From assembly GCA_015068165.1 (NCBI GenBank), contig SVKZ01000003.1, positions 936 through 64,935 on the forward strand: a stretch of 64,000 nt of DNA. Direction: 5' to 3'. The DNA comes from Oscillospiraceae bacterium. GTDB taxonomy: Bacteria; Bacillota; Clostridia; Oscillospirales; Oscillospiraceae. Below, piece by piece: positions 57,266-61,380 of the stretch. A model generated the notes under the pieces. The model was not told the DNA's origin and did no database searches. It was given only the letters and a program-made list of their open reading frames with translations. A program made the translations under genes and the position numbers. Numbering within the stretch: the first letter of the stretch is position 1; every line of letters begins with the position of its first letter.

Positions 57266-57294
57266 TTGACAAACCTGTACTGCCGTGCTAAAAT
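57266..57294 (+). promoter_or_regulatory. SigA promoter of tRNA-Ser
   Basis: TTGACA-N17-TAAAAT with TGn extension. Confidence 0.85.
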
Positions 57295-57321: not shown

Positions 57322-57414
57322 GGAGTGATACCCAAGAGGCCGAAGGGGCTCCCCTGCTAAGGGAGTAGGCGGTCTTAAAGCCGCGCGAGGGTTCAAATCC
57401 CTCTCACTCCGCCA
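57322..57414 (+). tRNA. tRNA-Ser(GCT)
   Basis: Acceptor GGAGTGA/TCACTCC; anticodon arm CTCCC-CTGCTAA-GGGAG; long variable arm; T-arm GAGGG-TTCAAAT-CCCTC; encoded CCA. Confidence 0.97.
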
Positions 57415-57589
57415 AATAGCCGATTTTGCCAAGTTTTTGGTGGAATTGGCTATTTTTTATGCGAAATTGTTTCTTTTTTCTCTATTCCTTAGTTGGCGAA
57501 AAATCGTGCAAATACGGCGAAATATTACGCAATCTTTTTCTATTGCGTATTCTATTGCGTATGGAACTAATTATGAGGAGGAGAATTTT

Positions 57590-57943
57590 ATGGAAGCGTT
57601 TCACGAAAAAGATGTACAAAAAAGAGTGTCCAGCACACTGCGAAAACTGGGATTTCCGGTATATCGGAATGGGTTTCGATGTCTACGATATGCAATCCCC
57701 AGATTTTCCCAAGATCCAAACCAAAGCATAACAAAGGAACTGTATCCCTATGTTGCAGAACGGCTCCAGTTTACAGGGTGGATGGCTGTGGAGAAAGCGG
57801 TACGCGAAGCAATCTCTGCGGCGTGGAAAAATCGAGACCCGAAGAAATGGGAAGAGCTGTTCCCGGGATGCGAAAAAGCTCCGTCAAACAAACAGCTTAT
57901 TGCTACGCTTGCAGAATTGCTATGCGAACGAATTGAATCGTAA
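57590..57943 (+). CDS. Spo0A C-terminal (effector)-domain-only protein
   Basis: LRKLGFP..GFRCLRYAI..SITKELYPYVA..AVEKAVREAISAAW..PSNKQLIATLA matches the Spo0A DNA-binding domain; no receiver domain. Confidence 0.85.
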   Translation: MEAFHEKDVQKRVSSTLRKLGFPVYRNGFRCLRYAIPRFSQDPNQSITKELYPYVAERLQFTGWMAVEKAVREAISAAWKNRDPKKWEELFPGCEKAPSNKQLIATLAELLCERIES

Positions 57944-57975
57944 AAATTAGGGGGAGGCGTATTGCCTCCCCATTT

Positions 57976-59079
57976 TTATTTTGGTTTTGATAACTTGTTT
58001 ATAGCCTCAAGCATTGGTTCTATCGACACGTGGATATATTGCTCGGTGGTAGAAAATCTGCTGTGTCGCATAATCTTCTGCAAAACGCTTGCCGGTATGT
58101 TTTCTGTGGCTAAGGTGCTTGCAGTGGTATGCCTGCAGCTATAGGGCGGCAGGCGTTTACAGCCAGCTCTTTCAAGAGCCTCGTAGTACTTGTCGTAGAA
58201 AGCGTCCCTGCCGATTTGGATTAACTTATCTCCCGGGGTGTGCTCGCACAGGTCCGCCAGTACAGGCAGGATGATATCTGCCAGAACGATGGGCGTCTGC
58301 TTGCGCTCCTTGGTCTTTTTGCCGGCACCCCATATCTGCTTGCCGTCCCAATCAATTTGGCTCTTGCGGGCGTCCAGCAACTCACCGGGCATCATTCCCG
58401 TGTGGATCATAAGAAGTATGTAACCTGTCCACCAGTTTCCAGCTAAATAATCATCCCAAAGCTTGGAAATGTCGTCCGGACTGAAAGCTTCCCGTTCTTT
58501 TGCATTTAACGGTGGCAGCTCGATGTATTCGGCAAGGTTGAGCGGGACAAACTGATCCGGCAATGCCAACTGGTATAGTTTGGATAGAAGATCTTTAATG
58601 TCCCTGGCGGGATAAAATGTTTTTGCGTGGCGATCCACAATGCCCTGAAGGTCTGATACGGTCAGGAGATCAATGCGGACAAATGCTTCTTTCTCAATTT
58701 TGCGCCAGACAATGGCATATTTCTCCTTCCGGGAAGCAGAGAGCTTATCATACTGCCGGGAATCGGCGTACCGTTCCCAAAGCTCATATAATGTGGGCGC
58801 TTTGCGTGGCCGCTCATTTTTGAGGGTAGGGATGTACTCAATGGCTTCTTTTTTTGTCTTAAAGCCTCTTTTGGTAACCCGGATCGGTACGGCCCTGCCA
58901 TCTACGACTTTGTAACCGAGGACGACGGCAGCTTCCCACGTCCGACCTCTCTTGTAAACAGAGCCGGTACCATTGCCCCGGCGGGTGCCATTGCGGGTGA
59001 TAGACTGCTTTCTTCCGCAAAACGGGCAAAAAATTGCGCCTTCCGGCAGCTCTGCGGCACATTTTATACAATTAGACAT
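57976..59079 (-). CDS. Tyrosine recombinase/integrase with N-terminal zinc ribbon
   Basis: CIKC..CPFC; NGTGSVYKR arm-binding domain; TGMMPGEL, YSCRHT, MRHS..TTEQY; AAGGAGG RBS. Confidence 0.92.
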   Translation of the reverse strand: MSNCIKCAAELPEGAIFCPFCGRKQSITRNGTRRGNGTGSVYKRGRTWEAAVVLGYKVVDGRAVPIRVTKRGFKTKKEAIEYIPTLKNERPRKAPTLYELWERYADSRQYDKLSASRKEKYAIVWRKIEKEAFVRIDLLTVSDLQGIVDRHAKTFYPARDIKDLLSKLYQLALPDQFVPLNLAEYIELPPLNAKEREAFSPDDISKLWDDYLAGNWWTGYILLMIHTGMMPGELLDARKSQIDWDGKQIWGAGKKTKERKQTPIVLADIILPVLADLCEHTPGDKLIQIGRDAFYDKYYEALERAGCKRLPPYSCRHTTASTLATENIPASVLQKIMRHSRFSTTEQYIHVSIEPMLEAINKLSKPK

Positions 59080-59232: not shown

Positions 59233-60318
59233 TTATATTTCTTTACCCTTTTCGGCGGCAAGCAGTTTAAGGGTTTGATAGTTTTTTGTGTTTTGGGTTC
59301 TCATGCGCCGGAAACTGGTGATATTTTTAGGTGCTTTAGCGGGGAAATTGTTTTGCAGCCATATTAAGGTGTGATCGTCAAGGTGTTTTTGATATTCGAT
59401 TTCAATTATATGATCTTCGTAGTGCTGTTGTTGTTCTTTCCGCTTGGCTTCTCTTTGCCGTACTTCTTCAACGGCTTTTTTGCAGTCTTTGGTTCGATCA
59501 TCTGCAAAAGGTCTATTACTAAAGGAAACGATATTGCGCTTATAAAAGATATTTTTTATGGGGTGATGAGCCAATGTTATTTTCATACTATTACTTGACA
59601 TATTGTCAATGTATGCGAAAAAACGATGTGTACAACCAGGATGAACGCAACCATATTTTGAGATTTCATAAGGGAGGGGAGGATACTTCTTGCTTTTACC
59701 AGAAATGGAATAAACCCTTCCTTGATATTTGGCACATTCGGAGCAGGCAAATTCTTCCGTGGTCATTATTAAATAATCAGTACCAAGCGTGTGGGCATTT
59801 CTTATTTCTTTGTGCAGGGCGTTTATGGATTCATCACATTCTGCCTTGCCGTAATAGGCATCAATTTCTTTTTTGGTGTTTTTGGCATCTTCGAGGCGTC
59901 CAGATCGTGCGAGCAGACGAACAAGATAGTATGCTTCTGTTCGCCTGTGTGTTGGGTACTTCAATCGCATAAGATCATTCGATTTTTGCTGACACGCTAT
60001 TGCCAAATCGTACTTTTGTTCACTGGCATATTGTTGTGCTTTACTATGAAGATAATAATATACCTCTCCAGTAGGGCCTGACATAATAGAATTTGCGGGG
60101 ACAGGGGCTCTTGGCAGGTCGGCTCTGACAGGAATTGAGTTGATTTGCTCTATAGTATCTGTGCTGTAATTTCTACTTAGCCAAGCTATTTCAAAGTTTC
60201 GGAACTGCCTATAAAGTTCTGGCGGAATGTCAGAGCCAGATGCGTTTAGAGCTGAGATTCTGGATAGTAAAATTCTTTCCGCATAAGTCAGATTATCAAT
60301 GTTGTTACATTTTTCCAT
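59233..60318 (-). CDS. 361-aa lysogeny-module hypothetical protein with MuF/minor-capsid-like Cys-His motif
   Basis: GGAGG RBS; CSECAKYQGRVYS..YPPL..HPGCTH; AT-richer than the flanking genes. Confidence 0.75.
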   Translation of the reverse strand: MEKCNNIDNLTYAERILLSRISALNASGSDIPPELYRQFRNFEIAWLSRNYSTDTIEQINSIPVRADLPRAPVPANSIMSGPTGEVYYYLHSKAQQYASEQKYDLAIACQQKSNDLMRLKYPTHRRTEAYYLVRLLARSGRLEDAKNTKKEIDAYYGKAECDESINALHKEIRNAHTLGTDYLIMTTEEFACSECAKYQGRVYSISGKSKKYPPLPYEISKYGCVHPGCTHRFFAYIDNMSSNSMKITLAHHPIKNIFYKRNIVSFSNRPFADDRTKDCKKAVEEVRQREAKRKEQQQHYEDHIIEIEYQKHLDDHTLIWLQNNFPAKAPKNITSFRRMRTQNTKNYQTLKLLAAEKGKEI

Positions 60319-60338: not shown

Positions 60339-60992
60339 TTATCTTAATGTGCTTGTAAAGGCAACGGCTTTGCCCAGAATACGAATATTGTTCATTTCTT
60401 CGCCCCAATAGACCATAGGGCGGTACTGGGGGTTTTCCGGCTCCAGGGAGATATGATCTTCAAAGAGCTGCACGCGCTTTAGGGTGGCTTCGCCGTCGAT
60501 CAGGACGGCGGCAATCTCTCCGCTGTCCACGGTATCTTGCTGGCGGATGTAAACAATATCGCCATCGAAGATCCGGGCATTGATCATACTGTCGCCCTTG
60601 CAGGTTAGGGCAAAGTCGGCGTTTATATATTTAGGCATATCCACATATTCCTCTATGTGCTCCTCCGCCAGGATGGGCGCACCGCAGGCGATCAATCCAA
60701 GCAGCGGGATTTGCCGCGTTTCCGGTAGTGGGATAATCCCAAGGTTATCTACAAAAAAATCAACAGGCATATCGTCAATGGTGTTGAGCAACTCCATAGT
60801 TGTGAGCCTCATTCCTTCCGCCAGCTTTTTCAACTGTGGAAGGGTCGGCGTAACAGGCTTTCCTGTGTTTGGGTTAATTCCTTTTTCCAATATGGAGATA
60901 TACCCGTTTGAGAGACCGCACAGATCGGCAAATTGACGTTGAGACAATGCGTGTGCCTCTCTGTATTCACGAATAAGAACACCTAATTCCAA
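60339..60992 (-). CDS. CI-like prophage repressor (XRE HTH + S24 autopeptidase)
   Basis: LSQRQFADLCGLSNGYISILEKG; IACG cleavage loop; GDSM Ser and TLKR Lys; TTG start with AAGGAGG. Confidence 0.93.
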   Translation of the reverse strand: MELGVLIREYREAHALSQRQFADLCGLSNGYISILEKGINPNTGKPVTPTLPQLKKLAEGMRLTTMELLNTIDDMPVDFFVDNLGIIPLPETRQIPLLGLIACGAPILAEEHIEEYVDMPKYINADFALTCKGDSMINARIFDGDIVYIRQQDTVDSGEIAAVLIDGEATLKRVQLFEDHISLEPENPQYRPMVYWGEEMNNIRILGKAVAFTSTLR

Positions 60993-61185: not shown

Positions 61186-61380
61186 TTGGGTTACAGAATT
61201 AAGGAAGCGCGAGAAGAAAAAAAGATGACACAGGAAGAACTCGCCGAAAAAAGCGGTGTAAGCCGCGGAACAATTTCAGCCCTTGAAAGCGGAGTTGAAC
61301 GCACGACCACCACAAAGACGTTACTAAAAATAGCGTCGGCGCTGGATCTAACAGTAGACCAGCTTTTTTTGTCCCCTTAA
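61186..61380 (+). CDS. Cro-like XRE HTH protein
   Basis: RIKEAREEKKMTQEELAEKSGVSRGTISALESG; divergent from CI. Confidence 0.92.
   Translation: MGYRIKEAREEKKMTQEELAEKSGVSRGTISALESGVERTTTTKTLLKIASALDLTVDQLFLSP

Follow-up and report, generated by a model that had tools for sequence, protein, structure and literature searches.

A stand-alone Spo0A effector-domain gene as probable prophage cargo at a tRNA-Ser gene in Faecousia (Oscillospiraceae)

The open reading frame at positions 57590-57943 (plus strand) of the window, by which we mean the whole stretch of 64,000 nucleotides that was analysed (G000:C24:936-64935), encodes a complete six-helix Spo0A effector fold without a receiver domain, and its position and distribution indicate that it is very probably prophage cargo. 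We suggest, with a probability of about 0.55, that it is a moron carried by a temperate phage whose integration site is the 3' end of a tRNA-Ser(gct) gene, and that its product may compete at 0A-box-like sites of the host.

A Spo0A effector domain without a receiver

The gene and its local signals are as follows.

57576-57581, plus strand: ribosome-binding site (RBS) AGGAGG, read from the sequence, with the ATG 8 nt further on
57590-57943, plus strand: stand-alone Spo0A_C gene (open reading frame, Pfam, AlphaFold2 model and Foldseek)
57951-57971, both strands: G+C-rich bidirectional terminator hairpin at the boundary of the Spo0A_C and integrase genes (terminator scan of both strands)

In silico translation gives a protein of 117 aa (P0001) that matches the Pfam Spo0A_C profile (PF08769) over profile positions 1-102 of 104, with an E-value of 6.4e-22 and a score of 78 bits, the gathering cut-off being 25 bits. 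The Pfam search returned no receiver domain and no Response_reg match for P0001; only 12 residues precede the effector domain, and the 174 nt upstream of the gene are att arm. Sequence matches to the Spo0A effector domains of PDB 1FC3 and 1LQ1 were obtained at an E-value of about 5e-9. An AlphaFold2 model built on 13 homologues (pLDDT 90.8, pTM 0.84) consists of six helices and is confident across the whole fold. When this model was compared with known structures using Foldseek, chains of 1LQ1 and 1FC3 were the only significant matches (TM 0.78-0.90, rmsd 1.5-1.9 Å), the next fold having an E-value of 0.26, and the match is thus far beyond chance. The initial annotation had described a receiver-less Spo0A effector domain, more exactly a 117-aa Spo0A DNA-binding domain with its own RBS lying between the tRNA-Ser 3' end and the integrase stop; the Pfam score, the TM values and the lack of a receiver match bear out the first description, and the second holds in every particular.

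The hairpin at 57951-57971 carries T-runs on either strand and parts the Spo0A_C gene from the convergent integrase gene, and with its own RBS and terminator the P0001 gene forms a self-contained cassette between the att arm and the integrase. A promoter scan detected no sigma-70-type promoter at 57417-57589, from the tRNA terminator to the gene, and the sole strong promoter near the gene is that of tRNA-Ser itself. The exact P0001 protein occurs on 23 metagenome contigs, with the order tRNA, gene, integrase in all 10 that were listed.

Integration site and prophage genes

The integration site, the att arm and the prophage genes assembled to the right of it comprise the following features.

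57266-57294, plus strand: strong tRNA-Ser promoter, TTGACA-17-TAAAAT (promoter scan)
57322-57414, plus strand: tRNA-Ser(gct), the integration target (ARAGORN)
57392-57416, no strand: att core of 25 bp at the tRNA 3' end, TTCAAATCCCTCTCACTCCGCCAAA (BLAST against the whole assembly)
57417-57458, plus strand: terminator hairpin that the phage contributes to the rebuilt tRNA, with the stem TAGCCGATT/AATTGGCTA and then T6
57526-57561, plus strand: probable arm-type integrase sites, with tandem CTATTGCGTA at 57540-57549 and 57552-57561 and TT between them
57526-57533, plus strand: inverted copy TACGCAAT of the arm repeat (sequence)
57976-59079, minus strand: tyrosine integrase, 367 aa, with Phage_integrase and Arm-DNA-bind_4 domains and an N-terminal zinc ribbon (Pfam, PHROG)
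59233-60318, minus strand: 361-aa gene with a MuF/minor-capsid-like domain in the interval between integrase and repressor (PF06152, PHROG 581)
60339-60992, minus strand: CI/LexA-like prophage repressor (Pfam HTH_3 and Peptidase_S24)
61186-61380, plus strand: Cro-like helix-turn-helix gene, divergent from the repressor (Pfam)

The att core consists of the last 23 nt of tRNA-Ser plus two bases, and BLAST found one further exact copy in the G000 assembly (C38:4064-4088). By alignment, the terminator at 57417-57458 is homologous to those of G078, G070 and the contig that encodes a related protein, P0002 (L090). The 29-nt block of arm repeats is identical in G078, and the repeat is seen again in L077 and L090; since L077 is a locus without a Spo0A_C gene, the arm repeats belong to the att/integrase system. 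The integrase gene, on the minus strand, has its stop at 57976, and the 32 nt between it and the P0001 gene are filled by the terminator.

Further rightward, the prophage encodes an SMC/AAA_23 protein and a metallo-beta-lactamase-fold protein, and longer public contigs add SSB, Dam and a C5 methylase. The walk along the prophage on public contigs reached about 11 kb, where the Dam/methylase module is one that an rve-transposase element also has. With the end of contig C24 at 65117, about 7.7 kb of the prophage are assembled; its attR and late genes fall outside the G000 assembly, and tblastn with the proteins of the G070 prophage found no late genes on other G000 contigs.

Position of the gene relative to the att sites

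In the nearest species (G023, contig C74), synteny at 83% identity extends over coaX, a membrane protein gene, the tRNA promoter and the tRNA, and stops at 57414; beyond the tRNA 3' end, G023 has a terminator and an unrelated integrase, and no Spo0A_C gene. The att core is also duplicated around the G070 prophage and, in G002, around a prophage of 30.7 kb that is unrelated. The cassette of terminator, CTATTGCGTA arm repeats and Spo0A_C gene has homologous counterparts in G078, in G070 and on the P0002 contig, with products of 106 aa (49% identical to P0001), 221 aa (38%) and 116 aa (77%), respectively. The window integrase is 75% identical to that of G070, 72% to that of JAZNZZ01 and 66% to that of G078, all of which are tRNA-Ser prophages.

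The two arms of the G070 prophage are found on separate contigs. Contig C10 carries the intact tRNA, the arm repeats and the Spo0A-like gene, and contig C74 carries the integrase, then CTATTGCGT repeats that are the same as on C10, then a 64-bp partial tRNA. Repeats on both arms are the pattern of arm-type integrase sites, and the Spo0A-like gene of G070 therefore lies inside the att sites. In our window the gene is on the phage side of the att core; together with the homologue inside both arms in G070, this supports the location inside att sites that the initial annotation had put forward as a condition, although the far att copy of this prophage falls outside the assembly.

A prophage without the gene is found in L077 (JAZNZZ010000200), which has the tRNA, the terminator, identical arm repeats and the integrase, and lacks a Spo0A_C gene. 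Its repressor and SMC-like protein are 74% and 64% identical, respectively, to those of the window. The distance from the arm repeats to the integrase stop is 32 nt in L077 and 414 nt in the window, where the interval is occupied by the RBS, the open reading frame and the terminator. Since the cassette is thus present or absent among prophages of one integrase family, the gene is apparently an optional phage gene, that is, a moron.

Alternatively, the gene could be a chromosomal Spo0A_C paralogue that happens to lie next to the prophage, the true att site being downstream of it. Such genes do exist (e.g., a 239-aa protein encoded on contig C54 of the host), a receiver-bearing paralogue is present near tRNA-Ser in G007 and G134, although on the 5' side, and the gene is always co-oriented with the tRNA in the five elements that carry it. 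We consider this reading, already disfavoured, extremely improbable. The 32-nt gap between gene and integrase is a terminator and has no similarity to any repeat; the G023 synteny ends at the tRNA 3' end, which is also the repeated core in G002, G070 and G000; and the tRNA is separated from the gene by phage arm repeats. The distribution of the gene also argues against it. Among 121 Faecousia genomes, the 25-mer of the tRNA 3' end is assembled in 84 (twice in eight), and a cross-match of the 25-mer hits with a protein search placed a P0001-like gene within 1 kb downstream of the tRNA end in three of the 84 (G000, G070 and G078) and left 81 without it at this tRNA. The two nearest species have no P0001 orthologue, their best matches being paralogues of 36-41% identity. 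No prophage-free strain of the same species is among the genomes compared. Retention of the gene beside tRNA-Ser in a genome free of this phage family, which the initial annotation had singled out as contrary to its proposal, was not encountered.

The far end of the prophage was sought as well. A tRNA-Ser 3' repeat, which the initial annotation expected there, does exist as the 25-bp copy at C38:4064-4088, but it most likely marks the boundary of a second island. We considered it as attR of this prophage and rejected it, its left flank being an ECF-transporter operon. The core on C38 is followed by a terminator and TMEM164/ThrRS genes, and the 170-bp arm beside it lacks CTATTGCGTA and carries TTTCCCTTA-type repeats, which elsewhere accompany a different integrase (G023 and G070). 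G012 has the same arrangement of ECF genes, arm and core as C38 without this phage. Based on the TTTCCCTTA arm, the ECF flank and the arrangement in G012, the C38 core copy probably bounds a second, tandem ECF island, and we interpret the tRNA-Ser locus as a hot spot with elements arrayed in tandem.

Scans for an unintegrated attP gave no match for core plus arm on viral contigs; on metagenome contigs, the arm repeat gave three chance matches without integrase, Spo0A_C gene or tRNA core. The scan of genome contigs with the arm pattern yielded loci L077-L079. Half of the public contigs (5/10) start 30-50 nt upstream of the tRNA and were considered as possible attP forms; this was rejected, as all are integrated forms, and the contig breaks are best explained by the conservation of the tRNA and its promoter between species (about 96%).

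Relationship to host Spo0A and to other Spo0A_C proteins

The canonical Spo0A of the host, encoded on contig C35, scores 278.4 bits against the NCBIfam model TIGR02875 (Spo0A equivalog, cut-off 200 bits), whereas P0001 scores 48.8 bits. P0001 is 31-35% identical to canonical Spo0A effector domains, and 35% identical to that of C35. A truncated or recent copy of the host spo0A was therefore rejected as its origin, given this identity and a score far under the equivalog cut-off.

The chromosomal paralogue of the host mentioned above (C54:26297-27016, 239 aa) has a receiver-like domain that, by alignment, lacks the phospho-acceptor Asp and whose Response_reg score is under threshold. It substantiates the reservation in the initial annotation that chromosomal Spo0A_C paralogues also exist, and in a protein search most genomes of the genus gave a second Spo0A_C match, located in an open frame about 250 aa long. 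In a tree of the domain, a strongly supported clade on a long branch unites the canonical proteins, and the remainder is poorly resolved; P0001 and P0002 fall outside the canonical clade, among short and pseudo-receiver forms.

Such proteins are abundant. In a profile search of 1.84 billion cluster representatives, E <= 0.001 was reached by 8,869 clusters and E <= 1e-10 by 2,786. Of the 150 best-scoring clusters (at 50% identity), about 48 represent stand-alone proteins with lengths of 93-160 aa, the majority of the others have 200-250 aa, and about 20 contain between two and five Spo0A_C domains in tandem. IMG/VR viral contigs encode stand-alone relatives of 109-126 aa, which match PHROG 24603 and 37855, both of unknown function. 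GenBank matches labelled 'Bacteriophage sp.' (28-35% identical) were considered as relatives and set aside, the three examined being full-length Spo0A of the canonical type. On these comparisons, P0001 is a member of a large, fast-evolving and divergent paralogue family, and consequently its recognition of TGNCGAA is an assumption.

The 221-aa version with a degenerate N-terminal domain, found at the same position in the G070 prophage, raises the question of whether P0001 might be a decaying, functionless remnant of a receiver-bearing paralogue. This appears very unlikely. The open reading frame, RBS and terminator of the P0001 gene are intact, the model is confident over the whole fold, and stand-alone proteins are frequent among the best 150 clusters, as noted above. 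Further, in a comparison with the P0002 gene, which has 77% identity and the same length (116 aa), the dN/dS ratio is 0.16 (NG86) or 0.23 (YN00), and the gene is, judging from this pair, under purifying selection.

DNA recognition and contact with sigma-A

An isolated DNA-binding domain of Spo0A binds its targets without phosphorylation (PMC3485338), and the statement of the initial annotation that the isolated effector domain needs no phosphorylation to bind DNA agrees with this. In the family alignment, E68, R72, W79 and F91 are invariant, and the TKELYP helix, P98 and N100 are kept. By contrast, the recognition helix reads MAVEKAVRE in P0001 and SRVERAIRH in the canonical proteins (compared with 1LQ1 and 1FC3); by alignment, E213 and R217 are kept and S210M, R211A, R214K and H218E are changed. 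The B. subtilis residue numbers used here are our own count based on mutant names, and we take the base-contacting residues of this helix to be those of the 1LQ1 paper. Since the recognition helix differs from that of canonical Spo0A, the target of P0001 may not be the 0A box.

A second difference concerns the segment after F236 (GYTV), where the loop of P0001 is four residues shorter, and an R occupies the position of G227. The four-residue deletion is common to all short and pseudo-receiver paralogues, and is not seen in the canonical Spo0A of the host. Residues of about 227-240 (B. subtilis) are presumably the region that activates sigma-A. The shortened sigma-A-contact loop and the replacement of G227 favour a role as competitor over a role as activator, and P0001 is predicted to bind DNA independently of phosphorylation and to compete, more probably than to activate.

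The genomic distribution of 0A boxes was considered as a possible guide to the target. TGNCGAA occurs 33 times in the window, compared with 35.7 expected, and by such counts the boxes are enriched neither in the window nor in the prophage. Only one box lies upstream of the P0001 gene (57494-57500); P0004 has a similar box upstream, but the arms of P0002, G078 and G070 do not conserve it. No perfect 0A box was found within 400 nt upstream of the host spo0A. With counts that are not enriched and a single upstream box that is not conserved, this lead was dropped.

Possible roles

Taken together, we hypothesize that the gene is brought in as a moron by a temperate phage that integrates at the 3' end of tRNA-Ser(gct) in Faecousia. 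As nothing gates its helix-turn-helix, P0001 would need no phosphorylation and would bind DNA at any time at which the lysogen produces it. It would then occupy 0A-box-like sites as a competitor or repressor, most likely not as an activator, and part of the Spo0A-controlled stationary-phase and sporulation programme of the host would be uncoupled from the phosphorelay, to the gain of the prophage. A sporulation programme does exist to act on, since the host genome encodes, besides Spo0A, SpoIVA, SpoIIE, SpoIIID and an alpha/beta-type SASP; the genome is 92.5% complete, and a search of it for GPR was negative. We regard an action of P0001 on the host Spo0A regulon as plausible, at about even odds.

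A stronger version is that P0001 is an always-on, dominant-negative mimic of Spo0A that binds Spo0A-type sites but cannot activate, and by which sporulation is blocked or re-timed, and that its expression might also depend on integration; we hold this to be doubtful. All five gene-carrying elements of the integrase family have the gene co-oriented with, and directly downstream of, tRNA-Ser and its strong promoter, irrespective of the orientation of the remaining phage genome: relative to the backbone, the cassette of att site and gene has one orientation in the window and G078 and the opposite one in G070. Transcription from the tRNA promoter might therefore read through into the gene once the phage is integrated. 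Against this, a terminator lies in between, and one short relative located at another tRNA is antiparallel to that tRNA.

Alternatively, P0001 might be a regulator of the phage itself that binds sites in phage DNA, such as a directionality factor for att and int or a lysis-lysogeny switch, with no direct role in sporulation. A small helix-turn-helix protein encoded between att and int occupies a frequent place of excisionase genes, and the gene is directly beside conserved tandem repeats. In addition, the short genes of other prophages are found together with another Spo0A_C gene that forms an operon with the gene of a DUF4367 membrane protein, an arrangement that resembles a regulatory module complete in itself. 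However, the related prophage L077, with an integrase of 72% identity and the same arm repeats, does without the gene, and since the arm repeats occur without it, they are not an operator of P0001. Moreover, the gene runs towards int and ends in a terminator of its own, and the G070 homologue lies across attP from int. We know of no recombination directionality factor of the Spo0A_C fold, and consider this alternative rather unlikely.

It could also be imagined that P0001 serves in anti-phage defence, a constitutive Spo0A mimic silencing incoming phages that sense sporulation through 0A boxes (phi29, Nf). The gene is an accessory one in a part of the prophage where exclusion genes are common; to our knowledge, no defence system has the Spo0A_C fold. 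There is a precedent for such repression by the host protein, as Spo0A represses the early promoters and the replication of phi29-family phages through 0A boxes (PMC2731898). On balance we judge a defensive role improbable, and the reading of P0001 as a phage-borne competitor at host sites is the one we prefer.

Significance

Spore formation governs the persistence and transmission of many gut Firmicutes, and if the proposed role is true, a prophage gene able to override the sporulation decision would be a direct viral lever on it. The locus offers a clean test case, with defined cassette boundaries and natural comparators within one integrase family. Its value is limited by the host being an uncultured MAG, by the great frequency of stand-alone Spo0A_C proteins in databases and by a DNA target that is only predicted.

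Comparison with known systems

The P0001 gene is a further case of an already described type, the phage-borne effector-only spo0A. Schwartz et al. (mBio 2023; PMC10294663) reported spo0A homologues in human-gut viromes (29 sequences) that are truncated to the effector domain, in line with the initial annotation, and proposed that they act without host signals, giving no experiment; we found no later functional study of such genes in the paper library searched. Like those genes, P0001 is effector-only and encoded on phage DNA of a gut Firmicute, and the same phosphorylation-independent interference with sporulation is suggested for it. What is added here is how the cassette is built and where it sits: it adjoins the att site at tRNA-Ser, and among prophages of one defined integrase family some have the gene, some are without it and some encode a form with a receiver-like domain. 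Further, P0001 belongs to a paralogue family that has diverged from the canonical Spo0A clade and is predicted from its sequence to compete rather than to activate.

Compared with canonical Spo0A (C35 of the host, and the B. subtilis and G. stearothermophilus domains in 1LQ1 and 1FC3, respectively), P0001 has the same six-helix fold and TKELYP positioning helix, and keeps the VExAxRxAI recognition helix and W224/F236. It differs in lacking a receiver, in the changes at positions 210, 211, 214 and 218, in the shorter loop and in the replacement of G227 by R. The pseudo-receiver paralogues of Faecousia (C54 and the 221-aa protein of G070) are 36-38% identical to P0001 and share with it the AWKNR..W..FP..KxPSN signature and the shortened loop. 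Unlike P0001, they bear a receiver-like domain, which lacks the phospho-acceptor Asp in C54 and the acidic pocket in G070, and the C54 paralogue is chromosomal.

A parallel in logic only is provided by phage homologues of sporulation sigma factors, in which a phage copy of a host developmental regulator could likewise rewire dormancy. According to the account in PMC10294663, these homologues lowered the spore yield of B. subtilis (Schwartz et al. 2022, bioRxiv 10.1101/2021.11.12.468384). They belong to another protein family and act at another step of the pathway, and their effect was tested experimentally, whereas that of P0001 is predicted from sequence. Finally, the P0001 cassette resembles classical morons in having its own RBS and terminator, in its position between att and int and in its presence or absence among related prophages, and differs from them in that the scan identified no promoter of its own.

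Integration at the tRNA-Ser(gct) 3' end

The 3' end of tRNA-Ser(gct) (window 57390-57414) is an integration hot spot in the genus Faecousia. The 25-mer at this end occurs twice in 8 of the 84 Faecousia genomes in which it is assembled, and at least three mutually unrelated types of element use it, namely phages with a zinc-ribbon integrase, elements with the integrase type of the nearest species (G023), and a 30.7-kb prophage in genome G002, whose integrase lies at its far end. The T-arm sequence of the tRNA (GAGAGGGATTTGAA) also recurs in inverted form about 50 nt 3' of native tRNA-Ser terminators, as listed here.

G000:C38:4137-4150, inverted T-arm copy in the source genome
G078:C48 (L091), inverted T-arm copy past the tRNA terminator, one of two occurrences in this genome, which carries a related prophage

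The second copy of the 25-bp core in the source genome is preceded by an ECF-transporter operon that ends 175 nt ahead of it, and the same arrangement of operon and core copy was observed in another Faecousia genome (G012:C65, L062).

G000:C38:1-4088 (L001), ECF operon encoding DUF4430, a 308-aa protein, and a fused double ABC ATPase plus S component, with the core copy

The arm between operon and core copy contains TTTCCCTTA-type repeats, which in G023 and G070 adjoin an unrelated integrase downstream of tRNA-Ser. This locus probably represents a second integrative island arranged in tandem with the prophage.

Integrase and mosaic gene content of the prophage

All four zinc-ribbon integrases of the prophage's family (window 57976-59079, L065, L074 and L077) have their first catalytic box I Arg replaced by Met or Cys (TGMMPGEL / SGCMPGEL). 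Because the family is found in four different prophages sharing one tRNA, this unusual active site characterises the family as a whole and does not point to decay.

Between integrase and repressor, outside any head module, lies a gene with a MuF/minor-capsid-2-like domain, for which no counterpart was present at the same position in the related prophages L077 and G078.

Window 59233-60318, minus strand, 361-aa MuF-like protein

A comparison of loci L068 and L070-L073 with L069 revealed that the proteins of the prophage's Dam plus C5-methylase module are identical to those of a different element with an rve-family transposase; public assemblies break about 11 kb into the prophage because of this mosaicism.

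Spo0A relatives on chromosomes and in other elements

A chromosomal Spo0A paralogue of the source genome carries Ala at the phospho-acceptor position of its receiver-like domain, and most Faecousia genomes have a second Spo0A-like match of this size.

G000:C54:26297-27016, minus strand, 239-aa Spo0A paralogue

Genomes G007 and G134 have a paralogue with a receiver domain upstream of tRNA-Ser, in divergent orientation. Full-length canonical-type Spo0A (255-286 aa) with a receiver domain was found on three unverified human faecal scaffolds titled 'Bacteriophage sp.' (GenBank MT835504, MT835718 and MT835715; L083-L085), where it clusters with the host's canonical Spo0A; either bacterial DNA is present in the scaffolds or the phages carry an entire spo0A gene. 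The best-scoring matches to the short-family profile include longer proteins (350-1003 aa) in which three to five Spo0A_C domains stand in tandem (P0014, P0015, P0017, P0022 and P0039), an architecture that is not known to have been described before.

Other prophages combine a short Spo0A_C gene, located by a tRNA fragment, with a divergent operon of three genes encoding a second Spo0A_C protein (~145 aa), a DUF4367 protein (~280 aa) and a ~140-aa protein (L086-L089; L092, IMG/VR UViG_3300018495_003362; also G099:C104 and G080:C21). The operon adjoins holin and endolysin genes, and it looks like a regulator/anti-regulator module.
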